Source: Desulfosudaceae bacterium
GTDB taxonomy: Bacteria; Desulfobacterota; Desulfobacteria; Desulfobacterales; Desulfosudaceae
DNA length: 64,000 nucleotides
Assembly: GCA_963674745.2 (NCBI GenBank)
Contig: CAXXDV010000001.1
Location: 1,472,001-1,536,000, forward strand
Direction: 5' to 3'
Part shown: piece after piece, positions 8,169 through 32,435 of the stretch
How the letters are laid out: every line of letters starts with the position of its first letter
Position numbering within the stretch: the stretch's first letter is position 1
Made by a program: the position numbers and the translations under genes
The notes under the pieces: model-generated
Database searches by the model: none
Seen by the model: only the letters and a program-made list of their open reading frames with translations
What the model was told of the DNA's origin: nothing

Positions 8169-8283
8169 TAACGAGTCCGTCACTTGGGAGCAGGGAAAGG
8201 TGATTTTTGCAAAGCCACGTTAACACCGAACCCCGATACTGAAAAAGCAGCCCGCCCTGCGAGACAAGTGCATGATTTTGTTA
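8169..8283 (-). repeat. Distal-most intact attC site
   Basis: TAACGAGTCCGTCACTTGGGAGCAGGG...CCCTGCGAGACAAGTGCATGATTTTGTTA. Confidence 0.85.
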
Positions 8284-8316
8284 TAACACCTTTTTATTAC
8301 CGTTAAAATTTATCCA

Positions 8317-8345
8317 TTGACATTTTACGTATTAAAATTTACAAT
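8317..8345 (+). promoter_or_regulatory. Sigma70 promoter of phd-relE TA cassette
   Basis: TTGACA-N17-TACAAT, followed by TGTACA. Confidence 0.75.
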
Positions 8346-8385
8346 ATGTACAAAATGAACGTTTTATACATTTGAGGTGCTCATT

Positions 8386-8637
8386 ATGCTTAACAAAATC
8401 ACAACGGCGGATGCCAGAAAAAAATTATCAAACATCATCAACAGGGTTGCTTTTGGAAACGAGTCTTTTGTCTTGACCCGTAGGGGCGAACCGGTTGCGG
8501 CTCTTGTTTCATTGAATGAACTGAAACTCCTGCAAGATATTGAAGACCAGATAGACATTGAGGATGCGTGGAAAGCAAAAAAAGAACCCGGTGAACCAAT
8601 CCCCTGGGAAGAGTTGAAAAAGGAACTTGAACTGTGA
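8386..8637 (+). CDS. Phd/YefM-family antitoxin (cassette, inverted relative to array)
   Basis: ITTADARKKLSNIINRV...LTRRGEPVAALVS; overlaps toxin start (GTGA). Confidence 0.9.
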   Translation: MLNKITTADARKKLSNIINRVAFGNESFVLTRRGEPVAALVSLNELKLLQDIEDQIDIEDAWKAKKEPGEPIPWEELKKELEL

Positions 8638-8900
8638 GTTATCGCATTGAGGTTAAAAGGTCTGCCGCAAAAGCGCTCCAGAAGACACCTAAAGCCGATC
8701 AAAAAAGAATAGCTGACAAAATTGATAGCCTGGCTCAAAATCCGTCGAATCCTGATACGACTAAAATGAAGGGTAACAACCCTTTTCATAAGATACGGGT
8801 CGGGGATTATCGAATAATTTACGAAATACAAGAGGAAGTCCTTATTATCCTGATAGTCAAAATTGGCCACCGTAAAGATGTCTACAAAGGCTTATCATGA
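8634..8900 (+). CDS. RelE/StbE-family toxin
   Basis: YRIEVKRSAAKAL...KIRVGDYRIIYEI...VKIGHRKDVY. Confidence 0.92.
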   Translation: MSYRIEVKRSAAKALQKTPKADQKRIADKIDSLAQNPSNPDTTKMKGNNPFHKIRVGDYRIIYEIQEEVLIILIVKIGHRKDVYKGLS

Positions 8901-8985
8901 TTGTTTCTCTTTATGCGTTATAACGGCGGCCGCCAATGGGAGCCAGGGCTTCCTCTGACTGTCTTAATGGCGGTTAATATTCAGT

Positions 8986-9642
8986 TTACACCCGATAGCT
9001 CAAAACCCGAGTGCCCTGGCGATTCTCTTGCGATGCCTCGTTAGATAATCCTATATTTCTTTGTTGCATTTTTCGTAATGCATAATACAAAAATTCTTTT
9101 TTATTCGTTTTTAAATCATAACCATAACCCAGCTCAACTTCATTGCGGTCTTTTATGTGTATTACGATTTTATGAAATAATGAATTTTCAAAATCATACT
9201 CACTTTTTTTCTTTATTACTTGGATTGTATTTAGTGGAAAGGATCGTTTTTTTCCAAATTTGCCCACGCCGGAAAAAATTGTAACGTTACCATCAACACA
9301 TTGAAGTTCTATTTTTCCATAAACACTTTTCAGAACAGTACCAAGGCAGTATATGGGTACGATATAAAAAACACCACATACAATAATTGCTGAGATATCC
9401 AACGTTTTGGATGTGTAGCACATTAAAAGTATATAACCGAAAAATGCTGCGAAAAAAAATCCAACTAATGCATTTCCTATAGCTTGTGTTTTATCCTGAA
9501 TTAAGACACCAGCGATAAATTTGTTTGAATCTTCTAAAAGCCACGCACCTTCCGGTGGTGAATTAAGATATTGTTCAGCTAAGGAGTCTTCTTGATCAGA
9601 ATCGGAAATATCAAATCCACAATTTGGACATTTAATCTGCAT
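8986..9642 (-). CDS. Cassette protein, N-terminal CxxC plus 2 TM helices; stop lies inside attC
   Basis: Fills cassette; CPNC motif and hydrophobic segments. Confidence 0.7.
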   Translation of the reverse strand: MQIKCPNCGFDISDSDQEDSLAEQYLNSPPEGAWLLEDSNKFIAGVLIQDKTQAIGNALVGFFFAAFFGYILLMCYTSKTLDISAIIVCGVFYIVPIYCLGTVLKSVYGKIELQCVDGNVTIFSGVGKFGKKRSFPLNTIQVIKKKSEYDFENSLFHKIVIHIKDRNEVELGYGYDLKTNKKEFLYYALRKMQQRNIGLSNEASQENRQGTRVLSYRV

Positions 9643-9765
9643 TTTATTTATCTAACGTCCGCCACCACCGGCGAGCAGGGGATGCGGTCTTCGCTAAAGT
9701 GAGTTCAACACCAAGCTATGCCAGGACAAAAGCAGCCCGCCCCTGCGAGTCTGTGTGAGTGGCGT

Positions 9766-9894
9766 AGCAGCTATTTTACTACGCGCTTTGAATTAAAGAC
9801 AGTGAGTCCGTTCTGTTTAAAAAACGGAAAAGGGGAGTAAAAACTCAGGCCCTAAAAAATTTTTATTCCCTATTGACTCCGGGCGGCTCATATG
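9766..9894 (+). mobile_element. 129-bp insertion in attC, possible IS110/IS1111-like end remnant
   Basis: Interrupts conserved GGCGT|TGTTAG; ends TTGACTCCGGGCGGCTCATATG. Confidence 0.5.
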
Positions 9895-9896
9895 TG

Positions 9897-10157
9897 TTAG
9901 GCTGCGGATTGTTTTTTTGTATCCCACCCTGGAAATACAAGTACAGCAGGATGACATTTCAATGCTCTAGCAAGAACTTTTGCACGTTCAACACCAAGCT
10001 GAACACGGTCGTTTTCGATAGCAGAAATAGTAGATTGAGGAATACCTGTTAATTCAGCCAATTTGTTCTGGCTTAATTCCTGTAATTCCCGAATAATTCG
10101 AACTGATTCTCCTACGGATACATCCATACTTTTTTTGGCAAGCCTATAGTTTTTCAT
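9897..10157 (-). CDS. HTH XRE antitoxin (HigA-like)
   Basis: LSQNKLAELTGIPQSTISAIEN HTH; directly downstream of toxin. Confidence 0.85.
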   Translation of the reverse strand: MKNYRLAKKSMDVSVGESVRIIRELQELSQNKLAELTGIPQSTISAIENDRVQLGVERAKVLARALKCHPAVLVFPGWDTKKQSAA

Positions 10158-10158
10158 G

Positions 10159-10440
10159 TTATTTCTTCCTATAATCATGGGCGGTAATGTCAATTACCTC
10201 TATGAAGATCATGTCTCTCTCAATTCGATATATTACACGATACTGAAGCCCTAGGCGCGATGAACGGTGGCCAACCCACTGTCCAGAGAGCGACTCATCG
10301 TGAAATCCTTTAATCAGACGTAAACCTTCCGGTCCAGAAATAGCGACAATATCTTTCCATTTTTCATATCGTTTCAGCGTTTCTTGTGGCAGTCGGGGTA
10401 ACTTTCGAGTCGTTTTACGGTGTTCATATATTGTCCACAT
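10159..10440 (-). CDS. RelE/HigB-family mRNA interferase toxin
   Basis: GFHDESLSGQWVGHRSSRLGLQYRVIY; toxin-first order; TTGACA-N17-TATATA at 10475-10447. Confidence 0.85.
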   Translation of the reverse strand: MWTIYEHRKTTRKLPRLPQETLKRYEKWKDIVAISGPEGLRLIKGFHDESLSGQWVGHRSSRLGLQYRVIYRIERDMIFIEVIDITAHDYRKK

Positions 10441-10609
10441 ACTAAATATATACTATATTCTATTTGGTATGTCAAGGCTATTTTTCAGCCTAACGTCTCA
10501 AGCCAATGGCAGCCAGGGCTTCCACTGACTTGGTTAAAGAATTTAATTGTTCAACTCCCCCGACATTTCAAAACCCGAGTGCCCTGGCTGTCCACTTGAG
10601 CTTCTTGGT

Positions 10610-11319
10610 GTGTGCCGGGCACGGCACATGTTCTTAAAAGTGAGCCAAGGCTATCATATATTTGATAATTTTGGCAAGTCTTAGACCCAGCCTGATGGAG
10701 GCGAAGGGTGTAGCGGTAGTGCAACGGGGTACCGGTGACGGTGCTTCGGGAGGAAGCCGCCCTGCTGCGGAAGGGTACCGCGAAGGTACGGGATGACGCA
10801 CAGGAATCGAGTATAAGGCGCGCACGCCGGGACGAGTCTGCACAACAAGGCAAAGTCCTCTATCCATCTTAAGGCGTGTCCGTAAACTCGGCATTTACGT
10901 ACCGAAAGACACGTGCTTACCCCGGGAGATCTCTCCTGTGCCGTACAACGGCTGAGGGTCGGGTAACCGGCCCTGACCGCAGGGGAGAAGTCAGCAGAAG
11001 GCATAGTAGCCGGCGGAAACGAGCCGGGCCTCCCTTAAGCGGGAGAAGTATACCCGGAGGACTCACCCCGGTGAAGGCCGGAACGGTGCCCGGACCGAAT
11101 GGCACGGGTAAATGGTGGTGGCAAGTAAGGGAGTATCTCTTACGGGGATAATGCGGCAGCTGCCGAAATTCACGTAGCGAGCTTTCTCTGAAAACCCGGT
11201 GGAGCTGGTGGGATAACTCACAGCCGGTTTCATCAGTACCAGCCGAACCGCCTTGGTACGTGATCCGTATGCCAGGTGGTGTGGGAGGGGGTAGCCGTGA
11301 GGCTACTCCCTATCCCAAT
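10610..11319 (+). ncRNA. ORF-less group IIC-attC intron, copy 1
   Basis: 5' GTGTGCCGGGCACGGCAC; DV GAACCGCC...GGTGGTGTG; DVI ending CCCAAT; sits at GT|T of attC R'' on the bottom strand; removing it restores GTTGGGGC matching GCCCCAAC. Confidence 0.93.
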
Positions 11320-11334
11320 TGGGGCAAAAAAATA

Positions 11335-11372
11335 TTGACAATTCGCCCTTTATATGTACAATATGCTGTACA
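11335..11372 (+). promoter_or_regulatory. yefM-yoeB promoter and operator
   Basis: TTGACA-N16-TACAAT; two TGTACA palindromes 12 bp apart (11355, 11367), as in E. coli yefM-yoeB. Confidence 0.85.
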
Positions 11373-11384
11373 GGAGGTGATGAA

Positions 11385-11636
11385 ATGGAAGCCATAACCT
11401 ATACAGCAGCAAGACAAAACCTTGCTAAAACAATGGAAAAAGTTTGTCGAGACCGTGCTCCGATGATTGTAACACGGAAGTCCTCGGAATCTGTAGTTAT
11501 TATGTCTCTTGAGGATTTTGAATCCCTTGAAGAGACAGCATATCTATTGCGGTCACCGAAAAACACAAGACGGCTGATTGAATCTATCGTCCAACTCGAA
11601 AATGGCAAAGGAGATGAAAAGGAGCTTATAGAGTGA
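11385..11636 (+). CDS. yefM: YefM antitoxin (cassette, inverted)
   Basis: MEAITYTAARQNLAKTMEKV...SLEETAYLLRSPKN; 83 aa. Confidence 0.93.
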   Translation: MEAITYTAARQNLAKTMEKVCRDRAPMIVTRKSSESVVIMSLEDFESLEETAYLLRSPKNTRRLIESIVQLENGKGDEKELIE

Positions 11637-11887
11637 AGCTCATTTTTTCTGACCATGCCTGGGACGATTACATCTATTGGCAAAAAACGGACAAAAAAAT
11701 TCTTCGCCGTATCAACACCCTCATTAAGGAAACTAAACGCAGCCCTTTTGAGGGTGTTGGCAAACCTGAACCTTTGAAACATGCGCTTTCCGGCTACTGG
11801 TCCAGGCGAATCAATGACGAGCATAGATTCATTTATAAGGTTTCTGATGATGCAATTTTGATTGCTCAATTGAGATACCACTACTGA
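11633..11887 (+). CDS. yoeB: YoeB/Txe toxin
   Basis: AWDDYIYWQ...PFEGVGKPEPLKHALSGYWSRRINDEHR...RYHY. Confidence 0.95.
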   Translation: MKLIFSDHAWDDYIYWQKTDKKILRRINTLIKETKRSPFEGVGKPEPLKHALSGYWSRRINDEHRFIYKVSDDAILIAQLRYHY

Positions 11888-12022
11888 TCTTTCTTGTAGC
11901 CCCAACGGCGGCCGCCAATGGGAGCCAGGGCTTCCACTGACTTGCCTTAAAGTCGGTTAATGTTCGTTTTCCCCCGAATTGTTCAAAACCCGAATGCCCT
12001 GGCGATCCATTGCGCGGCCTTG

Positions 12023-12496
12023 TTAAGCGCCCATTTTCTTAATAGTATTTCGTCTTAATATGAAAAGCGTTTTCAATATAAAGAACAACACAAAGCTGAA
12101 AAAAAATCCGTTGGCTAATAATCCCACTGCAGCAAGTATTTGAGTCCTTTGGTTGAATTGTCTTTGTCCTATTGCATGATCTAATAATGGCTGGTAGATC
12201 CATTTCTGTTGTAAAGGCCTCAAGGCAGGACCAAAAGGTAAAGATAAAACAAACGAAAGATAATATGTGGAACGAATCTCGTTTTTAAAATTAACTTTCA
12301 AATTCTGGATTTCATTTTCTTCGAATTCTGGTTGTTCGATGGATTTTAAAAAAAGAGAGCCAACTTTCTTCCCGGCCAAATTCCCATGATAAATCGATAT
12401 GGAAAGGCTCATCAAAATATGAAGGAAAGCGATTGAGGCAATAATTACTATCTGTTTTGAATTGTATCTCATGTCATGCTTGGGAGCTATTGTCAT
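12023..12496 (-). CDS. Cassette membrane protein, unknown function
   Basis: Fills cassette; stop in R''. Confidence 0.7.
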   Translation of the reverse strand: MTIAPKHDMRYNSKQIVIIASIAFLHILMSLSISIYHGNLAGKKVGSLFLKSIEQPEFEENEIQNLKVNFKNEIRSTYYLSFVLSLPFGPALRPLQQKWIYQPLLDHAIGQRQFNQRTQILAAVGLLANGFFFSFVLFFILKTLFILRRNTIKKMGA

Positions 12497-12512
12497 ATTT
12501 TTGGCGCTTAAC

Positions 12513-12728
12513 GAGTCTGTAGGAAAAGTCTATTTTCGATAAATTTTATCTTTTTTCAGAAAAACACCTTCGTAGAATATATTTTATACTAAAACATAAA
12601 ATCCTTGCAAACCATCTATTTTAGATGGCTTCACAGAGATCATACAAAATCTTATATAACTTTCAGTTTTTCAAAAATTGGCGACAAAACCCTATGTTTT
12701 ACTCAAATTTTACTTTTTCTACAGCCTC
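12513..12728. mobile_element. 216-bp attC-targeting MITE-like element, locus 1
   Basis: TIRs GAGTCTGTAGGAAAAGT / ACTTTTTCTACAGCCTC; flanked by AAC and ATC. Confidence 0.85.
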
Positions 12729-12848
12729 ATCGTCGGAAGCCAGAGGCAGCCAGGGCTTTCTCGGACTGCCTTAATGATGATTAATGTTCATTTCCCCCAG
12801 GTTGCTCAAAATCCGACTGCCCTGGCTGTCCTTTCTGAGCTTCCTGGT

Positions 12849-13558
12849 GTGTGCCGGGCACGGCACATGTTCTTAAAAGTGAGCCAAGGCTATCATATAT
12901 TTGATAATTTTGGCAAGTCTTAGACCCAGCCTGATGGAGGCGAAGGGTGTAGCGGTAGTGCAACGGGGTGCCAGGGACGGTGCTTCGGGAGGAAGCCGCC
13001 CTGCTGCGGCAGGGTACCGCGAAGGTACGGGATGACGCACAGGAATCGAGTATAAGGCGCGCACGCCGGGACGAGCCTGCACCACAAGGCAAAGTCCTCT
13101 ATCCATCTTAAGGCGTGTCCGTAAACTTGGCATTTACGTACCGAAAGACACGTGCTTACCCCGGGAGATCTCTCCTGTGCCGTACAACGGCTGAGGGTCG
13201 GGTAACCGGCCCTGACCGCAGGGGAGAAGTCAGCAGAAGGCATAGTAGCCGGCGGAAACGAGCCGGGCCTCCCTTAAGCGGGAGAAGTATACCCGGAGGA
13301 CTCACCCCGGTGAAGGCCGGAACGGTGCCCGGACCGAATGGCACGGGTAAATGGTGGTGGCAAGTAAGGGAGTATCTCTTACGGGGATAATGCGGCAGCT
13401 GCCGAAATTCACGTAGCGAGCTTTCTCTGAAAACCCGGTGGAACTGGTGGGATAACTCACAGCCGGTTTCATCAGTACCAGCCGAACCGCCTTGGTACGT
13501 GATCCGTATGCCAGGTGGTGTGGGAGGGGGTAGCCGTGAGGCTACTCCCTATCCCAAT
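12849..13558 (+). ncRNA. ORF-less group IIC-attC intron, copy 2
   Basis: Same 710-bp element as 10610-11319 with few substitutions; removal restores GTTAAGCGGC matching GCCGCTTAAC. Confidence 0.93.
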
Positions 13559-14187
13559 TAAGCGGCATGTGGCTTTGGTGGTACGGGTACGCCCAGATGT
13601 CGTGCAGCTATTCGTGCCAAGCGACCGATGTTTTGGTTCGACGATAAGGAGACTTCCCGCAGCAGGGCTGTTGCAGTCTCCGAATTCCCAGAATGGTGAA
13701 GAATAGCAGCGAGAGAGACCCTCCTTCGGGGTGGTGTGAAGCAATCAAGGAGCCCAAGATTCCAGCGCTCAATGATCGAATGACGATCAGATAAATCGGA
13801 AAGGAATGGAAGGACGTTATTCACCAGGGAGGATTCTATCTCTTCCACAGCCTGTTCGAAACTGGACTCAGAGAGTGTCCACCAGTGATCGGTGCCATGC
13901 GGTTCAAGTACTCCAATTCGTGCACGGATCTCACATTCGGGCTCCGCGACAAACTCTGGTGATGCATCTGCGCCTTTTAAAGCCAGTGCAACTTCCGGGA
14001 TATAGACACCGATATTTATCGTGCACCTACCAGGAGGCCTTCTGCTGAGCTGCAGCTCGATTACATGAACGAGTTTCGCAGGAAGCGCGCGGTTGTAGGT
14101 GCGCCCTTTTCTGACAAACCCGTTACTTTGGAAGGTCCGCCCAAGCCGAGTCTGAAGCCGAGTTGCTATCTGTTGATGAGAACCCAT
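13558..14187 (-). CDS. DUF4304-like protein (cassette, visibly higher GC)
   Basis: GFVRKGRTY..VIELQLS..TINIGV..RARIG..DHWW..LPFL pattern. Confidence 0.7.
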   Translation of the reverse strand: MGSHQQIATRLQTRLGRTFQSNGFVRKGRTYNRALPAKLVHVIELQLSRRPPGRCTINIGVYIPEVALALKGADASPEFVAEPECEIRARIGVLEPHGTDHWWTLSESSFEQAVEEIESSLVNNVLPFLSDLSDRHSIIERWNLGLLDCFTPPRRRVSLAAILHHSGNSETATALLREVSLSSNQNIGRLARIAARHLGVPVPPKPHAA

Positions 14188-14343
14188 ATTTGTTCTGATT
14201 CCAACTCCTTCAGCCGCTTAACGTCCGCCACCACCGGCGAGCAGGGGATGCGGACTTCGCTAAAGTGAGTTCAACTCTAAATTACGCCAAAGCTAAAAAC
14301 AGCCCGCCCCTGCGAGTCAGCGTGGGTGGCGTTGTTAGAAACA

Positions 14344-14934
14344 TTATTTAAATCCTAATACCAAAACAACAAATTCCTTGTGATCTTCAAGCAGTTCTAT
14401 GAATGGAATAATATTTTGATCCTCGAATTTAAAAGGTAACCGGCGTTCGTAATTATTTTTTCTTGGAATTTCCATTGTTATACTTAGGAGCGTTGAATTT
14501 AATGGTTTATAAACCATGTCTGGCAAATTGATAGTTACTGAACTTTCAGCCAAATTAATCACTTTTGCTGTTTCCCAATTTATTAAAAACTCGGTACCAT
14601 AATTAAAACCTTTTGGAACATGAATATCTGTACTGTCGGCTGCAAAAACTGCGTATCCTAGGGGGTATTTATTTTTCAACTCATTTTCTTGTATTTCTTT
14701 ACGCGAAAGGTCTTGCTGGAAGTAATTGTTGATTGTTATTTGATTAGCTGTGATTCCGCCTTGTTGTTCTTTTGAGTTCACAATATTCTCAGCAATGAAA
14801 GCTTTAGGTTCTTTCATAGAGACTGTAGAATTATTCTCGCTCTTATTGGGCATAATATGCCAGCCATAGCCAGCCAGGACACCACCAAGAAGGATCAATA
14901 ACCCGCCAATTATTATGTAAGCCCAAGCATGCAT
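14344..14934 (-). CDS. Cassette protein with N-terminal TM anchor
   Basis: Fills cassette. Confidence 0.7.
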   Translation of the reverse strand: MHAWAYIIIGGLLILLGGVLAGYGWHIMPNKSENNSTVSMKEPKAFIAENIVNSKEQQGGITANQITINNYFQQDLSRKEIQENELKNKYPLGYAVFAADSTDIHVPKGFNYGTEFLINWETAKVINLAESSVTINLPDMVYKPLNSTLLSITMEIPRKNNYERRLPFKFEDQNIIPFIELLEDHKEFVVLVLGFK

Positions 14935-15075
14935 GATATTTTTATCCTACTCCGGTTTCTAACGTCTGCAGCCAAAGTAGCCAGGGCTTCCAGTGACTGC
15001 CTTTAAGATGGTTGATGTTCAATTTCCCCCGAATGTTCAAAAACCGAATGCCCTGGCTATCATTTGGGCTGCTTG

Positions 15076-15771
15076 GTTAAGTGCCCGCATTATTCTGAAA
15101 GACTTTAACGACAGCATGGGCAAATAAATTAAATTATTTTTTTTCTTTTTACGCCTTGTCCATCATGAACCTATGAAAACGGGCCGGTCTCTTTTCATCC
15201 GGACAAATATGGCGCATTATCATTCGGCAGCGCCAGTTCGAGATTACAATTTATCTTTACTGGACAAAAATATCAACTTGGTGACAATTACAATTTTGGC
15301 AACGAATATCGATTTCAGCCAAAATTCTTTTTTTATTTGTTTCCCGTACAGATTCAGTGCACTTAACGTCTGCAGCCAAAGTAGCCAGGGCTTCCAGTGA
15401 CTGACTTTAAGGTGGTTGATGTTCAATTTCCCCCGAATGATCAAAACCCTAATGCCCTGGCTATCATTTGGGCTGCTTGGTTAAGTGCCCGTATCATTCA
15501 GAAAGGCTTTAACGACAGCATGGACAAAATAATAAAATGATTTTTTCTTTTTACGACTTGCCCATCATGAACCTATGAAAACGGGCAGGTCACTTTTCAT
15601 CCGGACAAATAAAGGCGCATTATCATCTGGCCGCGCCAGTTCAAAAATACAATTTATCGTTACTGACCGAAAAATTCAACTTGGTGACAATTACCATTTT
15701 GGCAACGAATATCGTTTTCAGCCAAAATTCATTTTTTTATTTTTTCCCCGTAAAGAATTTGTGCACTTAAC
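15076..15771 (-). repeat. Gene-less cassette family A, copies 1-2 (bodies 15076-15367, 15480-15771)
   Basis: ~290-bp body bounded by GTTAAGTGC...GCACTTAAC; no conserved ORF. Confidence 0.85.
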
Positions 15772-15819
15772 GTCCGCCACCACCGGCGAGCAGGGTTTGC
15801 GGACTTTTTAAGGGTTAGT

Positions 15820-16407
15820 TCAACACCACACTATGCTAAAACTAAGGCAGGCCGCCCCTGCGAGTCCGTGTGAGTGGCGTTGTTGTGCAGCCGCATTAAC
15901 TTTTTTAAAAATTATACTATAGATTTCTATACCAATCGATTTGGCTTGGCTTTGTATGCTCTCTTTAATATTTTCGTACATATGATTTGAATAGTTGCAA
16001 TCGCTTTCCTGTCCCTCAGCGATTTGTGCAATCTTATCAGTTTCAATGTTCTTTAGCGCCTTTTGAAATTTATCTGAGAGACTATCTAAAACTATTTTTA
16101 TGTCTTTATCTCGAGTGGCATAATAAAAAGCCTTTGGCTCTTGGATTTTCCAGAGAATAGAAGCAGTATATTCAGGAAAACTGTTTAATTTTATCGGTAT
16201 TTGTTCAATTCTGCATACTTTAAATTCATGAACGTTTTCGGCAAAAGGTAATTTAAAATGAAGCCCGGGTTTAACAGGGCCTCTAACTATTTCTCCCTTT
16301 TGAGTAATGATAGCTTCACTACCTTCCATCACAGTGTAAACCGGTGAACCTGACCCACAAGCATAAAGAGTTAAGCACGGAATTAAGATTAATAATATTT
16401 TTCGCAT
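15820..16407 (-). CDS. SPFH/HflC-like lipoprotein (cassette; stop inside attC)
   Basis: LYAC lipobox; EAIITQKG..PGLHFKLPF; W.I.EP..FY. Confidence 0.7.
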   Translation of the reverse strand: MRKILLILIPCLTLYACGSGSPVYTVMEGSEAIITQKGEIVRGPVKPGLHFKLPFAENVHEFKVCRIEQIPIKLNSFPEYTASILWKIQEPKAFYYATRDKDIKIVLDSLSDKFQKALKNIETDKIAQIAEGQESDCNYSNHMYENIKESIQSQAKSIGIEIYSIIFKKVNAAAQQRHSHGLAGAACLSFSIVWC

Positions 16408-16544
16408 AGAATACCGTTTTATGCTGCACAACGTCCGCCACCACCTGCGAGCAGGGAATGCGGTCTTCGCTAAAGTGAGTTTAACACCAAACTACGCCAA
16501 AGCCAAAAACAGCCCACCCCTGCGAGTCTGTGTGAGTGGCGTTG

Positions 16545-16766
16545 TTATACCTTTTCTCTTTTTTTCTTTAAAGTCGCTAATGAATTCACTATTGCTGCTA
16601 CAAGAAAGACGCCGCTTAGAAACAGCAATATTGGACATGAAATCATGACGAATTTCTCAGCAGGTGAATTGGGTACGACAGAAATGGAGGAAATTACAAG
16701 AAAGGGAATAAAACAAAGGAAGAAACCCGCCCAAAAGGAATGCTGCTTATGTTTCCCTGATTCCAT
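16545..16766 (-). CDS. Small membrane protein (two-ORF cassette, duplicated at 49.6 kb)
   Basis: 2 TM helices; stop in R''. Confidence 0.6.
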   Translation of the reverse strand: MESGKHKQHSFWAGFFLCFIPFLVISSISVVPNSPAEKFVMISCPILLFLSGVFLVAAIVNSLATLKKKREKV

Positions 16767-16796
16767 ATATTAAACCTTTTCAAATGTATAAAACAT

Positions 16797-16973
16797 TCAT
16801 CCAAAACAAGATAACATTAAAACAACCCCATGACACGCAAAACCACCAATCAGGAATTTAATGGCGCTTGGCCTTTTCTGATCATTTATTTGTTCTAAAA
16901 GGACTTCTGCAATTCCAATAAATTCTAAAACTATTCCACAGACAGTCAGGATTATAACAAAAGGTATATCCAT
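16797..16973 (-). CDS. Small membrane peptide, 58 aa (MDIPFVIILTVCG...)
   Basis: Translated by hand; first ORF of the cassette; repeated at 49868-50044. Confidence 0.45.
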   Translation of the reverse strand: MDIPFVIILTVCGIVLEFIGIAEVLLEQINDQKRPSAIKFLIGGFACHGVVLMLSCFG

Positions 16974-17106
16974 ATTCTTTTAGGTCGGTATAACGTTTGC
17001 AGCCAAAGTAGCCAGGGCTTCCAGTGACTGACTTTAAGGTGGTTGACGTTCAATTTCCCCCGAATGTTCAAAACCCGAATGCCCTGGCTATCATTTGGGC
17101 TGCTTG

Positions 17107-17400
17107 GTTAAGTGCCCGCATTATTCAGAAAGACTTTAACGACAGCATGGGCAAATAAAATAAAATGATATTTTTCTTTTTACGCCTTGTCCATCATGAA
17201 CTTATGAAAACGGGTAGGTCTCTTTTCATCCGGACAAATAAAGGCGCATTATCATTTGGCCACGCCAGTTCGAAATTACAATTTATCTTTACTGGACAAA
17301 AATATCAACTTGGTGACAATTACCATTTTGGCAACGAATGGCGATTTCAGCCAAAATTCTTTTTTTTATTTTTTCCACGTACAGATTTAGTGCACTTAAC
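17107..17400 (-). repeat. Gene-less cassette family A, copy 3
   Basis: Same body. Confidence 0.85.
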
Positions 17401-17511
17401 GTCCACCGTCACTTGGGAGCAGGGGAAACGTGACTTTTGCAACGCCACGTTAACACCGAACCAGAATACATTAAAAGCAGCGCGCCCCTGCGAGTCAAGT
17501 GCATGGTGTTG

Positions 17512-17904
17512 TTAGGCAGCATTTCCTTTTTTAGAAGCCAAAACTCCGAGTCCGCCGATTAAGGCTACCAGACTCCAAACATAAGGCGCTGGAGTTTCCC
17601 ACATGACATTGCTGCCCCAGAGGCCGAGCCCTATTCCAAGGCAAGCAAAGCCTGCACTCATACCTGTGGCAACAACTGCCATCGCGACATGGCCTGGTCT
17701 GATAGATGCGTACACATACATAATGATAATGGCAGCAACGGATACTGAACCCACATGCCACGAGAAGTGATGTAACCAGATTACTTCATTAGGTATATCG
17801 GTCATGGAGAGGGGCGGTAGCACCATCGGTGCGCCAAGAAACTCATGTCCAACAACGCCAGCGAATGATAGTGCTGCTGCAATGCGAAAAAACCAGAATG
17901 ACAT
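17512..17904 (-). CDS. 4-TM cassette membrane protein
   Basis: GHEFLG and WHVGS motifs; AGGAG RBS. Confidence 0.75.
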   Translation of the reverse strand: MSFWFFRIAAALSFAGVVGHEFLGAPMVLPPLSMTDIPNEVIWLHHFSWHVGSVSVAAIIIMYVYASIRPGHVAMAVVATGMSAGFACLGIGLGLWGSNVMWETPAPYVWSLVALIGGLGVLASKKGNAA

Positions 17905-17934
17905 ATTACATACTCCTGCTGATTAATGCCTAAC

Positions 17935-18150
17935 GAGTCTGTAGGAAAAGTCTATTTTCGATAAATTTTATCTTTTTTCAGAAAAACACCTTCGTAGAAT
18001 ATATTTTATACTAAAACATAAAATCCTTGCAAACCATCTATTTTAGATGGCTTCACAGAGATCATACAAAATCTTATATAACTTTCAGGTTTTCAAAAAT
18101 TGGCGGCAAAACCCTATGTTTTACTCAAATTTTACTTTTTCTACAGCCTC
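17935..18150. mobile_element. 216-bp attC-targeting MITE-like element, locus 2
   Basis: AAC[GAGTC...GCCTC]AAC at attC crossover. Confidence 0.88.
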
Positions 18151-18265
18151 AACGTCCGCCACCACCGGCGAGCAGGGTTTGCGGACTTCTTTAAATGTCA
18201 GTTCAACACCACACTATGCCAAAACTAAGGCAGGGCGCCCCTGCGAGTCTGTGTGAGTGGCGTTG

Positions 18266-18601
18266 TTATAATCCATTTGTATTTATCATTTTTAAGCCCC
18301 CTACAATAAAAAGGATAAACAAAGAAGAAAATAGGGCCAAATAAAAAAATTGGTATCCTCTTAATATTTTGCAATATTTCAAAAGAGTAAGATTGTCTAT
18401 ATCAGTATATTGCTTTTTCCAAATGAATTTATGAAGTTTGTAAATAGTAGGCAGGGAATTGAACATAATATATATCTGCGGGCTCCCAATTGAAACCCAA
18501 GTATCATCATGTGACTGCCTCAGAATTGTGATTGTTTTCCATCTGAAGTATTCACCAAACAATAAAATAACTATCAAAATTATTATGATCAGATCTATCA
18601 T
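18266..18601 (-). CDS. Cassette membrane protein
   Basis: Fills cassette. Confidence 0.65.
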   Translation of the reverse strand: MIDLIIIILIVILLFGEYFRWKTITILRQSHDDTWVSIGSPQIYIMFNSLPTIYKLHKFIWKKQYTDIDNLTLLKYCKILRGYQFFYLALFSSLFILFIVGGLKMINTNGL

Positions 18602-18746
18602 TGATTTGGATTATAACGGCTGCCGCCAATGGGAGCCAGGGCTTCCACTGACTTGCCTTAATATTGGTTAAAGTTTGTTTTCCCCCGAATGGTCAAAATC
18701 CGGGTGCCCTGGCTCTCCTTTGGGCGGCATGGTTATGCGGGTTTTT

Positions 18747-19061
18747 TTATTCACCATTTTTGATTGCCTGCTTAATAATTGGAGCGACTGTATCTGGGCT
18801 TATCCTCCGGTCTTTGCAATATTTAGACTGCAACCAGACTGATAATTGCTTCTGTCCTTTACTTGCATTGCAACCTCGACAGCAAAGAACAATATTTTCT
18901 CTTGTAATAATTTTCGCATCATTGATTATATGTTCCCAACTTGCAGCAGATTTTGCAGATATCTTTGCTGGGGTAAATTCAACGCCGCAATAAACACACT
19001 TTTTATCCCTTTCCCTTACTTCCTTTTCAAGCCACTCTGGAATATTCCAATTATTTGCCAT
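18747..19061 (-). CDS. HNH endonuclease-like protein (cassette)
   Basis: VRERDKKCVYCG...WEHII...NIVLCCRGCNASKG. Confidence 0.85.
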   Translation of the reverse strand: MANNWNIPEWLEKEVRERDKKCVYCGVEFTPAKISAKSAASWEHIINDAKIITRENIVLCCRGCNASKGQKQLSVWLQSKYCKDRRISPDTVAPIIKQAIKNGE

Positions 19062-19218
19062 GAGAGATCGATGTATTGTTACGCATAACGTCTTCAGCCA
19101 AAGGGCGCCAGGGCTTCCTCCGACTGACTTAAAGATGGTTAAAATTTCAACTCAGCATGGCTGTTCAAAACCCGGGTGCCCTGGCGATCCTATTGCGCTG
19201 AATTGTTCGGTGCCGATT

Positions 19219-19629
19219 TTAGTTTCCGAAAAACAACTCTTTTGTCTCATAAAGCTTAGAACTATGTTTCCATCCAGACTCATGAGGTGGATCAGGGAAA
19301 GGGGCCTTTGCATAACCACAAGATTCCTTGAAATTAAATACAGCATGTGGAACTTGATTGATCAATAAGGCTGCTGCAGAAAAATCCCTCGTCCATATAA
19401 TTTTAATCATGGATGGTTTATCTCGGTCTATTACATCCTTAACATTGTATATATGTAGAGCATCTACGAAAAATTGACCAGAGAGAGAATAATCTCGCGC
19501 ATAAAAATAGCCTGTCTCACCATCATCTTCAAAGACAACTCCACGAATCCCATCAGATGTATCCGATTCAAGGACGATTTCTTCCCCGACCACGATTTCT
19601 TCTTCTACACCCAAAAATGGTGGCTTCAT
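19219..19629 (-). CDS. DUF2251-like protein (cassette; second copy at 40306)
   Basis: VVFEDDGETGYFYA...DALHIYNV...LLIN..PHAVFNF. Confidence 0.8.
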   Translation of the reverse strand: MKPPFLGVEEEIVVGEEIVLESDTSDGIRGVVFEDDGETGYFYARDYSLSGQFFVDALHIYNVKDVIDRDKPSMIKIIWTRDFSAAALLINQVPHAVFNFKESCGYAKAPFPDPPHESGWKHSSKLYETKELFFGN

Positions 19630-19757
19630 ATTTTATGCACCGAACGTCTGCAGCCAAAGTAGCCAGGGCTTCCAGTGACTGACTTTAAGGTGGTTGATGT
19701 TCAATTTCCCCCGAATGTTCAAAAGCCGAATGCCCTGGCTATCATTTGGGCTGCTTG

Positions 19758-20050
19758 GTTAAGTGCCCGCATTATTCAGAAAGACTTTAACGACAGCATG
19801 GGCAAATAAATAAAATTAATTTTTTTCTTTTTACGCCTTGTCCATCATGAACTTATAAAAACGGGCAGGTCTCTTTTCATCCGGACAAATAAAGGCGCAT
19901 TATCATCTGGCCGCGCCAGTTCGAAATTACAATTTATCTTTACTGGACAAAAATATCAACTTGGTGACAATTATAATTTTGGCAACGAATGTCGAATTCA
20001 GCCAAAATTCTTTTTTTATTTTTTTCTCGTACAAATTCAGTGCACTTAAC
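19758..20050 (-). repeat. Gene-less cassette family A, copy 4
   Basis: Same body. Confidence 0.85.
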
Positions 20051-20923
20051 GAGTCTGTAGGAAAAGTCTATTTTCGATAAATTTTATCTTTTTTCAGAAA
20101 AACACCTTCGTAGAATATATTTTATACTAAAACATAAAATCCTTGCAAACCATCTATTTTAGATGGCTTCACAGAGATCATACAAAATCTTATATAACTT
20201 TCAGGTTTTCAAAAATTGGCGGCAAAACCCTATGTTTTACTCAAATTTTACTTTTTCTACAGCCTCAACGAGTCTGTAGGAAAAGTCTATTTTCGATAAA
20301 TTTTATCTTTTTTCAGAAAAACACCTTCGTAGAATATATTTTATACTAAAACATAAAATCCTTGCAAACCATCTATTTTAGATGGCTTCACAGAGATCAT
20401 ACAAAATCTTATATAACTTTCAGGTTTTCAAAAATTGGCGGCAAAACCCTATGTTTTACTCAAATTTTACTTTTTCTACAGCCTCAACGAGTCTGTAGGA
20501 AAAGTCTATTTTCGATAAATTTTATCTTTTTTCAGAAAAACACCTTCGTAGAATATATTTTATACTAAAACATAAAATCCTTGCAAACCATCTATTTTAG
20601 ATGGCTTCACAGAGATCATACAAAATCTTATATAACTTTCAGGTTTTCAAAAATTGGCGGCAAAACCCTATGTTTTACTCAAATTTTACTTTTTCTACAG
20701 CCTCAACGAGTCTGTAGGAAAAGTCTATTTTCGATAAATTTTATCTTTTTTCAGAAAAACACCTTCGTAGAATATATTTTATACTAAAACATAAAATCCT
20801 TGCAAACCATCTATTTTAGATGGCTTCACAGAGATCATACAAAATCTTATATAACTTTCAGGTTTTCAAAAATTGGCGGCAAAACCCTATGTTTTACTCA
20901 AATTTTACTTTTTCTACAGCCTC
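20051..20923. mobile_element. Four head-to-tail copies of the 216-bp element (locus 3; period 219 bp)
   Basis: Copies at 20051, 20270, 20489, 20708, each separated by one AAC. Confidence 0.88.
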
Positions 20924-20965
20924 AACGTCTGAAGCCAGGGGCAGCCAGGGCTACTCCTGACCAGA

Positions 20966-21391
20966 TTATGGTTTTAAATTTTCGACTCCCCTCGGTTGCT
21001 CAACAAAGCCTGCCCTGGCTGTCCCTTTGCGCTTCTTGGTTATAAGGCTGATTATTATGGATAACGTGAATGTAATAACTGTGGCACATAATGCCAAAAA
21101 ACACACAAAGAAAAAATATGAATCCCAAAAAGGAGTTCCCAGAATTGGCAACCAAGTTAAAGCACAGGAATAAAACACAATTAAAGATATCATAAAATAT
21201 TTTGTATAATTTGATTTATGAAGATGCTTTAAACTCCATAATATGCCGAATACAAAGCCGATAATTCCAAAGAAGAAAATTGCCAAAATATAATGGTTTC
21301 CACTTTTCAAAACCGCGGATGACAAACCAGATAATGCGTTTAATTCATAATAAATAAATGGAATATATATTGTTGCCAGAAACCAACGCAT
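20966..21391 (-). CDS. 4-TM cassette membrane protein (stop inside attC)
   Basis: Start adjusted to first ATG inside cassette. Confidence 0.65.
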   Translation of the reverse strand: MRWFLATIYIPFIYYELNALSGLSSAVLKSGNHYILAIFFFGIIGFVFGILWSLKHLHKSNYTKYFMISLIVFYSCALTWLPILGTPFWDSYFFFVCFLALCATVITFTLSIIISLITKKRKGTARAGFVEQPRGVENLKP

Positions 21392-21520
21392 TTCGAAAAG
21401 CCTTATAACGTCCGCCACCACCGGCGCGCAGGGTTTGCGGACTTCGCTAAAGTAAGTTAAACACCAAATTACGCCAAAACAAAGGCCGCCCGCCCCTGCG
21501 AGTCCGGGTGAGTGGCGTTG

Positions 21521-21811
21521 TTATATTCCAGTTTTTATTTTTATGAAAATAATTGCTGCCAGCAGCCCTATCATAGCACCAAAAATTATCGACAAATACC
21601 ATTTTGAAATATTCGTGAATTTTATAATTAGTGCCGGAAAGATCGAAATCAGGATTATTTTGAATAGACCTGAAATTAAATAAGGCCAATCCATAAAACC
21701 GTAATGCTTGAGCATAGTCAAAAAGAAAATGGAAAATAAACAAATTGTGCTTGCAAAATAAGCAAGTAATGCTTGTTTTGAATGAGCTAAAAATTTGCTT
21801 TGATCATCCAT
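21521..21811 (-). CDS. 3-TM cassette membrane protein
   Basis: Start adjusted; stop in R''. Confidence 0.65.
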   Translation of the reverse strand: MDDQSKFLAHSKQALLAYFASTICLFSIFFLTMLKHYGFMDWPYLISGLFKIILISIFPALIIKFTNISKWYLSIIFGAMIGLLAAIIFIKIKTGI

Positions 21812-21957
21812 AAATTTTCTCTTGTGGAATATAACGTCCGCCACCACCGGCGAGCAGGGTTTGCGGACTTCGCTAAAGTAAGTTTAACACCAAATTACAC
21901 CAAAACTAAGGCAGCACGCCCCTGCGAGTCCGGGTGGGTGGCGTTGTTAGGAGGCGT

Positions 21958-22398
21958 CTATCCCGGCGCCTCATATTCCAAATTTTTTAAATGTATAGGT
22001 AATGGTGTCGGTTTTGGCAATTCAATATTACCATATATTGTCTTTAATGGTTTATTGGGGTTGAGAAAGTGAAAAAAGAATACCCAGCGACACCCACTAT
22101 CATCAAGGTGGCGTTCATCGTAAGGGACTTGCCAGTTCTCTTTTGATACCCCTTTTTCTTCTTGTGTTATCGAAGCCCAGTCAGAAGGCTGAAGCGGCTG
22201 TTGTGAGAGAATCTCAATTAGGAACAGATTATCAAAATGTTCCGTAACGTGTCTTTTGGCTTCATCAAGTTCTGCGCCTTCCAACTCTTCTCCCCACTGT
22301 AATATCAAAGTCTTTTGAAAGGTAGCCTCATTTGCTTGGTATTTATGGACACCAATGACCTGAAGAGGCATAGTTTTGGGCTTTTTCTTGAAGAGCAT
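21958..22398 (-). CDS. Cassette hypothetical protein
   Basis: Start adjusted; WQVPYDE...FFFHFL...L.T.YG motif. Confidence 0.7.
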   Translation of the reverse strand: MLFKKKPKTMPLQVIGVHKYQANEATFQKTLILQWGEELEGAELDEAKRHVTEHFDNLFLIEILSQQPLQPSDWASITQEEKGVSKENWQVPYDERHLDDSGCRWVFFFHFLNPNKPLKTIYGNIELPKPTPLPIHLKNLEYEAPG

Positions 22399-22531
22399 TA
22401 CTTCGTAAAGCCTCCTAACGTCCGCCACCACCGGCGAGCAGGGCTTGCGGACTTCGCTAAAGTAAAGTTCAACTCCAAATAACGCCAAAGCCAAAACAGC
22501 CCGCCCCTGCGAGTCTGTGTGAGTGGCGTTG

Positions 22532-23008
22532 TTATATTTTGCCTGTATTAATTTTATCTATAGCACGATCAAATTTGACCACCAATTCATTTAAAGTATC
22601 AACTGGACTCTTAGTAAAGGCTTTATCAGTAGGGTATAATGGCGCTACCCATTCGCATTCTTTGCAATTTTCGGCTATTGCAATCATTATGGTCAAAGAC
22701 CCTTTCCAAGATTCAATTATTTCATGCGGGTCACAGTTTGGAAAAACTTGCATCAATTTTTCCATCATTTTCTTTGTTGGGCTTTGAAGCAAATTTATCA
22801 CTTCAAGAGAATATTTAATCACATCTTTCGAGGCAGACGTCCTTGGCATTCCGACACAAATCGAAAAGCGCCAAAACCATTCCGCACATTCTTCTGAAAT
22901 ATCCGTGAAATATTCAGAATAGCTCAACAGGTCAAGTGAAGATGCATATTCGGGAAGAACGTGCATTTCAAATATGATTAATCTTGGATATTCTTTATAT
23001 TGCCACAT
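22532..23008 (-). CDS. Cassette hypothetical protein MWQYKEYP (copy 1 of 4)
   Basis: Identical translations at 27855, 56182, 58190. Confidence 0.75.
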   Translation of the reverse strand: MWQYKEYPRLIIFEMHVLPEYASSLDLLSYSEYFTDISEECAEWFWRFSICVGMPRTSASKDVIKYSLEVINLLQSPTKKMMEKLMQVFPNCDPHEIIESWKGSLTIMIAIAENCKECEWVAPLYPTDKAFTKSPVDTLNELVVKFDRAIDKINTGKI

Positions 23009-23137
23009 ATCTTATAAAATATAACGTCCGCCACCACCGGCGAGCAGGGGATGCGGACTTCTTAAATGTTCGTTTAACACCACACTATGCTAAAACCCAA
23101 AACCGACCGCCCCTGCGAGTCCGGGTGAGTGGCGTTG

Positions 23138-23518
23138 TTATATGCCATTATTCTTTCTACTTATTAGTTCATATGTAGAATATTTAAATCTAATATATAT
23201 GGTAGCAAAACCAAATAAACCCAAAAGAGAAATTGATACGTATTTATATAAATTATAATTGATCCCAAAGCTTGTCAGATCGGAAATAACTCCCAAAATA
23301 ATCCATATAAAAGCAAGAACAAAAAGTGATAACATGAAAATGGCTCTTCTTCTGGCATTTATATTTGGAATTAAAATAGAATTGCATAATGGACATTCAA
23401 TTTCAGATAAATAAAAAAAATTACGACGGTTTTTTCTTTGCTTCATCGCTTCGGAGTTCAGATCGAATTCTCCACTACAATCTGGACATTGAATGTTTAG
23501 TAATCTTTTTTTGAACAT
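23138..23518 (-). CDS. Zn-ribbon plus 2-TM cassette protein (copy 1 of 2)
   Basis: CPDC...CPLC motifs. Confidence 0.7.
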   Translation of the reverse strand: MFKKRLLNIQCPDCSGEFDLNSEAMKQRKNRRNFFYLSEIECPLCNSILIPNINARRRAIFMLSLFVLAFIWIILGVISDLTSFGINYNLYKYVSISLLGLFGFATIYIRFKYSTYELISRKNNGI

Positions 23519-23681
23519 GTGAAATTATTTTTGTGCATTTAAGTTCAAAGCATATAACGGCGGCCGCCAATGGGAGCCAGGGCTTCCACTGACCTGCCTT
23601 AAAGATGGTTTATGTTCAATTCCCCCGAAATTTCAAAAACCGAATGCCCTGGCTCTCCTTTGAGCGGCCTTGTTATATGAA

Positions 23682-24002
23682 TTACGCCACTATTGAAAAC
23701 AACAAACCAATTACTATAATCAAAAGTCCATATTCTTTTGCCCGAACTCTTGTCATAAATTTTATCTTTGATTCATCCAACTTGTTTCTGAGTATTATTG
23801 AGATAAATCCAAAAATGATCCAAAAAGGTCCAATATACCCAAAGCTTCCAGAGTGAGGGATTGTATTTACAGTGATATAGGACGCAAGAATGAGAATAAA
23901 CAACCCCAAAACTATAAAAAATTTATTATTTTTCCATAGCCCCAAACCCCAGAATAAGAATGAAAACAAAAACGGTATTGATAAATGATTAATATAGTTC
24001 AT
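23682..24002 (-). CDS. Cassette membrane protein
   Basis: Fills cassette. Confidence 0.65.
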   Translation of the reverse strand: MNYINHLSIPFLFSFLFWGLGLWKNNKFFIVLGLFILILASYITVNTIPHSGSFGYIGPFWIIFGFISIILRNKLDESKIKFMTRVRAKEYGLLIIVIGLLFSIVA

Positions 24003-24134
24003 TCAATGATAATTCATATAACGTCCGCCACCACCGGCGAGCAGGGGATGCGGACTTCTTAAATGTTCGTTTAACACCACACTATGCTAAAACCCAAAAC
24101 CGACCGCCCCTGCGAGTCCGGGTGAGTGGCGTTG

Positions 24135-24515
24135 TTATATGCCATTATTCTTTCTACTTATTAGTTCATATGTAGAATATTTAAATCTAATATATATGGT
24201 AGCAAAACCAAATAAACCCAAAAGAGAAATTGATACGTATTTATATAAATTATAATTGATCCCAAAGCTTGTCAGATCGGAAATAACTCCCAAAATAATC
24301 CATATAAAAGCAAGAACAAAAAGTGATAACATGAAAATGGCTCTTCTTCTGGCATTTATATTTGGAATTAAAATAGAATTGCATAATGGACATTCAATTT
24401 CAGATAAATAAAAAAAATTACGACGGTTTTTTCTTTGCTTCATCGCTTCGGAGTTCAGATCGAATTCTCCACTACAATCTGGACATTGAATGTTTAGTAA
24501 TCTTTTTTTGAACAT
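24135..24515 (-). CDS. Zn-ribbon plus 2-TM cassette protein (copy 2)
   Basis: Identical to 23138-23518. Confidence 0.7.
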   Translation of the reverse strand: MFKKRLLNIQCPDCSGEFDLNSEAMKQRKNRRNFFYLSEIECPLCNSILIPNINARRRAIFMLSLFVLAFIWIILGVISDLTSFGINYNLYKYVSISLLGLFGFATIYIRFKYSTYELISRKNNGI

Positions 24516-24666
24516 GTGAAATTATTTTTGTGCATTTAAGTTCAAAGCATATAACGTCCGCCACCACCGGCGAGCAGGGTTTTCGGACTTCTTAAAGGTT
24601 AGTTCAACACCACATTATGTTTAAACCAAGGCAGCCCGCCCCTGCGAGTCTGTGTGAGTGGCGTTG

Positions 24667-25047
24667 TTATGCAACTTGTATTATTGTTTTTCTAATTCCT
24701 GTTTTTGGGTCCCAGAAAACATAAAAGGACGTATCATCATGAAAATAGCCCGTGTTAACTGGAAGGTCAATTTGCCCGACAAAGACCATTGGCTGTCCTT
24801 TGGCGAATTGCCAATCGGAACCTTGAATCCAATTTGGTGGGGACGATATTGAAATGAACTGTTCCTTCATGACTTTCCGCAATGATGTGGCGATATCTTC
24901 GTCTCCTTCACGTGCAGAACTTATCAATTTCAAGAAAAACTCCTCCGATTCAGATGAAGTAAGTGGATCGATATTGTATTCACTGCATATCGGTAAAATT
25001 TCATCTAAATCATTACTTGAAATTTTGCTTTCGAAGGTATCTTCCAC
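24667..25047 (-). CDS. Cassette protein, C-terminus resembling YwqG/DUF1963
   Basis: PPNWIQ...MVFVGQID...FYVFWD...IIQ. Confidence 0.6.
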   Translation of the reverse strand: MEDTFESKISSNDLDEILPICSEYNIDPLTSSESEEFFLKLISSAREGDEDIATSLRKVMKEQFISISSPPNWIQGSDWQFAKGQPMVFVGQIDLPVNTGYFHDDTSFYVFWDPKTGIRKTIIQVA

Positions 25048-25184
25048 ATTTTCTCCGTTGCATAACGTCCGCCACCACCGGCGAGCAGGGTTTGCGGACT
25101 TTGCTAAAGTGAGTTTAACACCAAACTATGCCAGGACAAAAGCAGCCCGCCCCTGCGAGTCCGGGTGAGTGGCATTGTTATCTT

Positions 25185-25673
25185 TCAGTTTTTTAATATT
25201 TTTGATTCTATTAATTCATTTTTTAAAATCATAAAAATTCCTGCTACTACCGTAAAACCATGTGCAAATAAATTACTCCAATAGAAACCTCCTCCCGAGC
25301 GAATTGGTAAAAGGAATAAATCTCTGATTAAGGAGGACGTTCCACTTGTGAAAAAGTATATGCCTAAAAGAATAAGCCAAAAGGATAGATTAGAGTAATT
25401 GGGGTCGCTTTCATCTGTCTTGGGTGTTACTTTAGAATCTCCGGAAATAAAATTTGATATTTTTTCGGCCTTCGAAATTAAGAGGATTGCAACAATAATA
25501 TAAAATATCGGGAGAAAAGAAGCCCAAATATTATATAGCACAGGATTCTTGATAAACTTTTCCTGATTGATAGCAAATGAAGAGATTAATCCAGAAAATG
25601 CATATGGTATTTGAACTAAAAGATAAAGGCCGTAAATACGTGTTGCAATTTCAATGGCTTTTTTTGTGCTCAT
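25185..25673 (-). CDS. 4-TM cassette membrane protein (similar architecture to 37079)
   Basis: Start adjusted; RIYGLY...ILLGIYFF. Confidence 0.7.
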   Translation of the reverse strand: MSTKKAIEIATRIYGLYLLVQIPYAFSGLISSFAINQEKFIKNPVLYNIWASFLPIFYIIVAILLISKAEKISNFISGDSKVTPKTDESDPNYSNLSFWLILLGIYFFTSGTSSLIRDLFLLPIRSGGGFYWSNLFAHGFTVVAGIFMILKNELIESKILKN

Positions 25674-25848
25674 AGAGTTCCTTGAAGAAAGATAACGGTT
25701 GCAGCCAAAGGGCGCCAGGGCTTCTTCTGACTGTCTTAAAAATGGTTTATGTTCAAGTTCCATCGAAAATTCAAAACCCGTGTGCCCTGGCGGTCCTTTT
25801 GGGCTGCATGGTTATACGAATAATTATAGATTGGTTCTATGACTTTCA

Positions 25849-26118: not shown

Positions 26119-26266
26119 AAAGGTTTCTTTTTCTCTTTCTTGTTCAACGTATAACGTCTACCGTCACTTGGGAGCAGGGGAAAAGTGACTTTTGCAAAGC
26201 CACGTAAACACCGAACCACGATACTGTAAAAGCAGCACGCCCCTGCGAGTCAAGTGCATGGTATTG

Positions 26267-30802: not shown

Positions 30803-30818
30803 TATGTTTTTGCCTAAC

Positions 30819-32421: not shown

Positions 32422-32435
32422 TACAATTTACACCC

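Follow-up and report, generated by a model that had tools for sequence, protein, structure and literature searches.

Group IIC-attC introns, as portrayed in the available portions of PMC3001079 and PMC7923331, lie in the attC bottom strand, in antisense orientation to the gene of the cassette, at T(T/G)GT/T in the R'' box, and separate the gene from its attC. The intron analysed here agrees with S.ma.I2 and its relatives in all these respects. It differs from them, however, in lacking an ORF, in being present in six copies and in having in front of it an attC that comes from another cassette.

The mechanism of cassette creation is stated to be unknown in the accessible text of bioRxiv 10.1101/030866. 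A model by Leon and Roy (2009), as summarized in PMC7923331, proposes that homologous recombination between introns joins a gene to an attC. Our locus would resemble that model in that a gene was probably joined to an attC by recombination between two intron copies. Unlike in the model, both partners are mature cassettes, so that an attC was replaced and no cassette created; furthermore, splicing and reverse transcription into DNA would be putative steps at the DUF4304 locus described below. Recombination across group II intron copies has also been described from long reads of Klebsiella Kpn2146 (PMC4048246, in its accessible part). There, as in the "flank switch" of IS26, homology ends in a repeat and the flanks are reassorted, a likeness to the present case; the difference is that the position of the repeat studied here is fixed to the base, between gene and attC, and each reassortment therefore provides the gene with a new attC while leaving the R boxes intact. 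Recombination of attC top strands by IntI likewise has its crossover at R''. In the available part of PMC5027507, use of the top strand leads to inverted insertion at attI, and the exchange of bodies between two top strands considered below is an inference of ours.

Large, integrase-less, sedentary arrays with long attCs typical of their genome (CALINs) offer a further parallel. The portion of bioRxiv 10.1101/030866 at hand ties attC homogeneity to cassette creation, whereas the present data suggest that replacement and shuffling contribute to it as well. Searches of the accessible full-text literature revealed no earlier account of an attC being replaced through recombination between introns, and the accessible parts of PMC8946536 and PMC8876359 contain nothing on attC replacement.

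Two cassettes with the same attC body

The window, which is the whole 64,000-nt stretch analysed, corresponds to C1:1472001-1536000 of a 5.55-Mb genome in three contigs. The host is probably of Desulfobacterota type, to judge by the labels of two homologs of a single cassette gene. A cassette array of at least 88 attC sites occupies the minus strand (8172..59323), and the window has no integrase gene; a search for tyrosine recombinases gave no PF00589 match in C1:1472001-1536000. The 86 mapped attCs thus form a cluster without a neighbouring intI, as in CALINs, and the three candidate integron integrases of the genome each adjoin arrays other than this one. The attCs at 8918 and 9652 were omitted from the 86-site analysis as their ends could not be called. 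Genome-wide, 11 of 243 candidates were omitted for the same reason and 232 were used, a sample from which short attCs unlike the search seeds are probably missing. Families starting TGAACGAAG and TAATCATTG were counted as inserted elements and excluded from the cassettes. The 232 attCs serve 160 cassette types, 31 of them multi-copy. One short type, found at many sites within 14963-58190 of the window, occurs 27 times in the genome, and the attC bodies of some of these copies are recombined.

The longest exact match joins the attC body at 12731..12848 (plus strand, which carries the attC bottom strand) to 37029-37146. It extends over 118 nt, confirming the letter-for-letter identity asserted in the preliminary description; its first base is the C of the R' crossover and its last bases are the GT at which an intron begins, the body being the 5' exon of that intron. 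Family likeness does not explain this identity because the next-closest body among 231 others reaches only 78.8%. When all 86 window attCs were compared against each other, this was the sole identical pair among 3,545 pairs from unrelated cassettes, the runner-up showing 95.7%. We consider it very probable that the identity is a real feature of the sequence.

The view that unrelated cassettes carry distinct attCs holds within the window, where identical bodies are not common on intron-free cassettes. It does not hold genome-wide: two further identical pairs are carried by unrelated intron-free cassettes (C3:34473/36628 and C1:958173/C3:33003). At a level of 98% or more, unrelated partners that are likewise intron-free exist for 14 of the 225 intron-free sites, so that shared bodies on such cassettes occur to a slight extent. 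Identical bodies are shared by one of seven intron-bearing sites versus 4/225 intron-free sites (p=0.14); at 98%, the figures are 2/7 and 14/225 (p=0.077).

The second copy of the body (37029..37146, plus strand) is free of both the intron and the 219-nt repeat described below, and is recovered at single-copy depth in a contig of an independent run. Its cassette carries a gene for a 197-aa membrane protein (37079..37672, minus strand, GC 0.37) whose own start and R'' match, and whose product has no Pfam or NCBIfam match. The frame crosses R'', runs for 25 codons and stops inside the attC body (37079-37146). The 84 homologs of the gene mostly show SSN or SSK-like motifs near the end, and the C-terminal tails that come after the residues encoded by R'' are varied, as one would expect if gene and R'' travel apart from the attC body. 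No homolog was found in 150 relatives; a single metagenome locus, at 65%, has a different tail. A 27-nt pattern from the attC body had no match in the genome contig collection. By inference, this AT-rich gene is the likelier long-term owner of the 118-nt body, which is of the local type.

The intron, the adjoining repeat and the DUF4304 cassette

The body at 12731-12848 is followed by a 710-nt, ORF-less group IIC-attC intron (copy 2; 12849..13558, plus strand), inserted at TGGT/T in R'' and antisense to the cassette gene. A direct repeat of it, copy 1 (10610..11319, plus strand), lies 2.2 kb away. The intron scores 109.5 bits with Rfam RF02001 and 41.8 bits with RF01998, has a folding z of -4.6 and runs from GTGTG to CCCAAT, thus showing the GUGYG start, DV/DVI and AY end of group II introns. 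Six copies of 98.9-100% identity are present in the genome, which suggests recent mobility of the ORF-less form, together with one full-length relative (93%). All seven lie after TGGT or TTGT and before T in R'', in keeping with the IIC-attC target given in PMC7923331. The full-length relative, the only full-length IIC intron in the genome (L117:10135-12066, that is, C3:1855134-1857065), encodes a putative RT that matches TIGR04416 and, among solved structures, is closest to GsI-IIC RT (E 6e-116); its frame is interrupted by an in-frame stop that follows codon 310 and precedes the thumb region. Of 401 genomes from the order, 69 contain the start motif of the intron.

Copy 2 carries three clustered changes at 12970, 12973 and 12975 (intron positions 122-127), and all four of its differences from the closest copy fall within the first 127 of 710 nt. 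The SNP patterns of the intron copies break the four-gamete rule. Two of the changes in 12970-12975 create a CAGGG complementary to a nearby CCCTG, and look like quasi-palindrome templated mutation and not random change.

On the opposite side of the body, at the R' crossover, lies an element that had been overlooked in the preliminary description: a 219-nt non-coding, MITE-like repeat (12512..12730). The genome harbors ten copies (window 12512-12730, 17935, four in tandem at 20051-20926, 30819 and 34717; C1:903006 and C1:2275307), always at an attC R' crossover, where the repeat regenerates the AAC end; no full copy was found in 60 relatives. Nine copies are identical and the one at 12512-12730 deviates, with private changes at 12667, 12684 and 12730, the last of which turns the conserved AAC into ATC. 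All three fall in the last 65 of 219 nt (P ~0.01 for one copy). Six private substitutions (12667-12975), three in the repeat and three in the intron, therefore flank the 118-nt body. They fit a donor tract between two repeats, but they also fit a poorly resolved assembly. Bleed-over from 37029 was considered as their source and does not explain them.

Beyond the intron lies a DUF4304 gene of 209 aa (13558..14187, minus strand; PF14137, E 5.9e-18; GC 0.525, GC3 0.48), whose stop codon sits in R'' and overlaps the last base of the intron. The 3' exon, TAAGCGGC (13559..13566, plus strand), is the remainder of the cassette's own R''. Box comparison identified its complementary partner in the cassette's own start box, TTAAGCGGC (14213..14221, minus strand). 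The TAAGCGGC after the intron and the cassette's own start, GTTAAGCGGC, share a 9-nt run (the mode over 212 intervals is 8) and agree at 7/7 variable positions, for which the chance is about 4^-7; the match between R'' and cassette start noted earlier was thus borne out. As R' and R'' match, the leader is 33 nt and the stop codon lies in R'', the unit is a mature cassette, and its maturity makes the event an attC replacement and no cassette birth. The unit is, in addition, already integrated at an attC crossover, and no terminator-like site was found at the end of the gene. Of the two interpretations offered in the preliminary description, "attC swapping" is supported by the finding of a mature cassette with an exact copy of an unrelated cassette's attC, whereas the marks of maturity run against a "captured intermediate of cassette formation".

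The gene had also been described as more GC-rich than its neighbours. The cassette indeed has the highest GC of 85 window intervals (0.52, against a mean of 0.354 for all); as a mark of foreignness, however, this value fails, being close to the genome mean of 50.5%. A foreign origin is suggested only by GC3 (0.48 versus 0.62-0.70 in four host genes) and by the lack of homologs in 100 relatives. The closest protein has 55% identity (it comes without DNA context) and the next 41%, none being found among the genome contigs searched.

In its present state the attC of the DUF4304 cassette is interrupted by the intron and has ATC in its R'. In an in silico circle form without the intron, the R box is paired, with -36.0 kcal/mol versus -31.0 kcal/mol for the native pairing.

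Other intron-bearing cassettes and attC shuffling

A second replacement case may lie next to the first. Intron copy 1 is preceded by a local-type 116-nt attC body, located by attC mapping (10494..10609, plus strand), and followed by a YefM-YoeB toxin-antitoxin cassette (11320..11905, plus strand). This cassette is 98% identical in genome G009, where a IIC intron is also found at R'' but the attC is an unrelated one of 57 nt; in G002 it is 94% identical, intron-free and followed by a short hairpin. In the genome under study (G000) the intron is resident-type up to its 3' end, and G000 and G009 therefore probably acquired their introns in separate insertions. The cassette behind the full-length intron likewise has a local long attC, and its 95% relative in G007 is intron-free with an unrelated 57-nt attC. 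The cassette behind C3:1854485, on the other hand, has retained its attC family in G002. Hence, three of the four assessable intron-bearing cassettes look refitted, and the other three are without a relative for comparison. Where intron-free cassettes have relatives, the local class is mostly retained, in cases too few for a test. The second of the two intron-bearing sites that share a body at 98% is a conserved short attC, which the intron-free G002 homolog carries too; the similarity between C3:1854485 and C3:2329456 (49/50 nt) was rejected as evidence of a swap.

Toxin-antitoxin cassettes behind introns recur in G000, G009 and G071 (11320-11905; L043; L031), the HigBA label in G071 being based on sequence appearance. 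Introns may be gained more readily by such cassettes if these reside for a long time.

Two other genomes contain comparable arrangements. In G071, two loci show no differences over a 550-nt flank, the attC itself and the first 450 nt of the intron; past this point they differ both in the 3' half of the intron and in the mature cassette that follows. A marker, G99, ties the 5' half of an ORF-less copy to the copy of IEP type, whereas A is found in the other two ORF-less copies; this single marker suggests a crossover between intron columns 99 and 508. In G423, 16 of the 30 main-family attCs in the 280 kb examined carry introns. Three pairs of unrelated cassettes have identical bodies there, two with introns on both sides and one without any, and the frequency of identical bodies is 4/16 at intron-bearing and 2/14 at intron-free sites (p=0.40). 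One G423 pair shares a 3,483-nt flank plus the attC at 99.6% up to the intron, with different genes beyond. In the present genome, in G071 and in G423, the shared body is bordered by the intron on one side and by a repeat or paralogous stretch on the other. Intron flanks from G307 and G168 were left out of the comparison, as their 3' ends were not called.

The IIC intron of G423, 1,931 nt long and present in 22 copies, also forms head-to-tail tandems of two, three and two copies at single attC sites (L119, L121; C1:2360756-2364620, 2395510-2401302 and 2409197-2413058).

Independently of introns, shuffling of attCs pervades the genome under study, and many multi-copy cassette types carry different attC bodies. 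Recent swaps without introns, in which the genes are 99-100% identical, have 14-32 or more terminal nt in common, which fits recombination in a conserved attC arm. Older intron-free gene pairs (87-93%) show whole-body differences ending 4-5 nt from R''. The body at 12731-12848 has at most 6 terminal nt in common with any of 230 other attCs, and recombination in the attC arm is therefore unlikely at DUF4304. Chimeric attCs are found at C3:1857801 and C1:903224. At L117 (C3:1857066-1857919), two adjacent attCs have the same last 47 nt, including a TTGA duplication, and the left arm of the upstream one is of another type, making it a chimera.

Possible routes to the attC replacement

As the best of the explanations, we consider it somewhat more probable than not that the attC of the DUF4304 cassette was replaced by homologous recombination between ORF-less IIC-attC intron copies. 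An ORF-less intron, mobilized in trans, would have inserted at GT/T in the R'' of the DUF4304 cassette and, likewise, in a copy of the 37079 cassette that has since been lost. The two introns, 99% identical, would then have undergone RecA-type recombination, which joined the DUF4304 R'' to the other attC body, either by deletion within the array or by conversion with the 219-nt repeat as second arm, and the reciprocal product would have been lost. The product would keep a matched R'/R'' pair because the intron always lies between the gene's own R'' and the attC body; after precise intron loss, a normal cassette with a host-type attC would result.

Several observations argue for this route, and the sequences make a role of the intron likely. 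The joint lies exactly at the intron, with identity up to the last base, and copies of cassettes are common in the genome. The G071 crossover and the flank sharing in G423 favor recombination through the intron, as do the two further intron-bearing cassettes with local long attCs whose relatives have unrelated 57-nt attCs. The four-gamete violation, together with changes that hug the swapped body, and the intron-free circle form that folds as a normal attC point in the same direction. Against the route stand the partner at 37029, which has neither intron nor repeat, and the fact that no reciprocal product or intron-bearing donor was found in the assembly. None of the enrichments is significant, neither the two in this genome nor that of G423, and whole-body differences also occur between intron-free pairs. 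In addition, the G071 crossover hangs on one marker, the introns of G000 and G009 were probably separate insertions, and the only full-length parent has a premature stop.

The order of events might also be the reverse. In this explanation, which we regard as unlikely, IntI recombined two top strands at R'' (G/TT) and ordinary retrohoming of the intron followed; in a variant, another R''-inserting repeat provided the homology and was later lost. The IntI crossover lies one invariant base from the intron site, and the joint thus cannot distinguish the routes. Top-strand cleavage at the AAC of R'' is described, at a low rate for some sites, in the accessible part of PMC5027507; the genome has candidate integrases and intron-free whole-body differences, other multi-copy elements follow R'' at several attCs, and no lost intron-bearing donor is required. 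However, the same source puts top-strand use orders of magnitude lower, and here it would be needed at both sites. This intron is found on only 7/232 attCs, a coincidence that costs about 3% per site, and neither the crossover within the G071 intron nor the private changes that flank the body are explained.

An assembly chimera, in which the wrong copy was placed where a short unique attC lies between high-copy repeats, seems improbable to us. The body does lie between a 10-copy and a 7-copy repeat, and is bordered by the six private substitutions in 12667-12975. Two independent runs, with no flank differences, have the body in one contig, in the 37029 context and at single-copy depth; the repeat-body and body-intron joints and the private alleles are absent from the listed contigs of both. 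Those contigs are, however, simplified ones that drop rare paths, and they also lose the alleles of three intron copies (13128, X1). Contigs of both runs confirm the cassette-repeat and intron-DUF4304 joints. Furthermore, the assembly resolves a four-copy repeat tandem and intron copies distinct by SNPs, the CAGGG/CCCTG changes look templated, and G071 and G423, although themselves assemblies, present the same pattern.

Recombination or conversion between attC bodies, with a crossover in the last bases before R'' and the intron arriving later, is in our opinion quite improbable. Such exchange is active in this genome, as indicated by the chimeric attCs and by the same genes (99-100%) with different bodies and 14-32 shared terminal nt, but the short terminal sharing of the DUF4304 body with any attC and a product identical to the last base argue against it here.

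Lastly, half-way de novo cassette formation as in the Leon and Roy model, with an intron behind the terminator of a non-cassette gene recombining with an intron in an attC, is very improbable: the gene is a GC outlier lacking homologs in 100 relatives and the gene-intron-attC layout is the one predicted in the summary given by PMC7923331, but the 7/7 agreement of R'' with the gene's own start, the compact leader, the stop codon in R'' and the position at an attC crossover oppose it, and DUF4304 is not the non-cassette gene with an intron behind its terminator that the model starts from.

If intron recombination is indeed the route, the step itself had already been proposed; what is new here is, most likely, that it is seen in natural genomes and acts on old cassettes, with G000, G071 and G423 offering natural products and a testable system. 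A tentative generalization, which we put forward with reserve, is that IIC-attC introns and other R''-inserting repeats act as a portable stretch of homology through which incoming cassettes are refitted with attCs of the host type. Such "naturalization" would be one reason for the uniformity of attCs in large chromosomal arrays, with no need for de novo cassettes, and would uncouple the lineage of an attC from the origin of its gene. If replacement is common, tracing the source of cassettes by their attCs, as treated in the available part of PMC8352920, would reveal the last refitting host and not the origin of the gene.

Two other multi-copy elements are found after R'' in this genome, one at C1:1740634, C1:2102522, C1:2283399 and C3:2332051, and the other at C3:1844368, C3:1847102 and C3:2334935. 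Swaps of this kind could use either of them as the homologous stretch.
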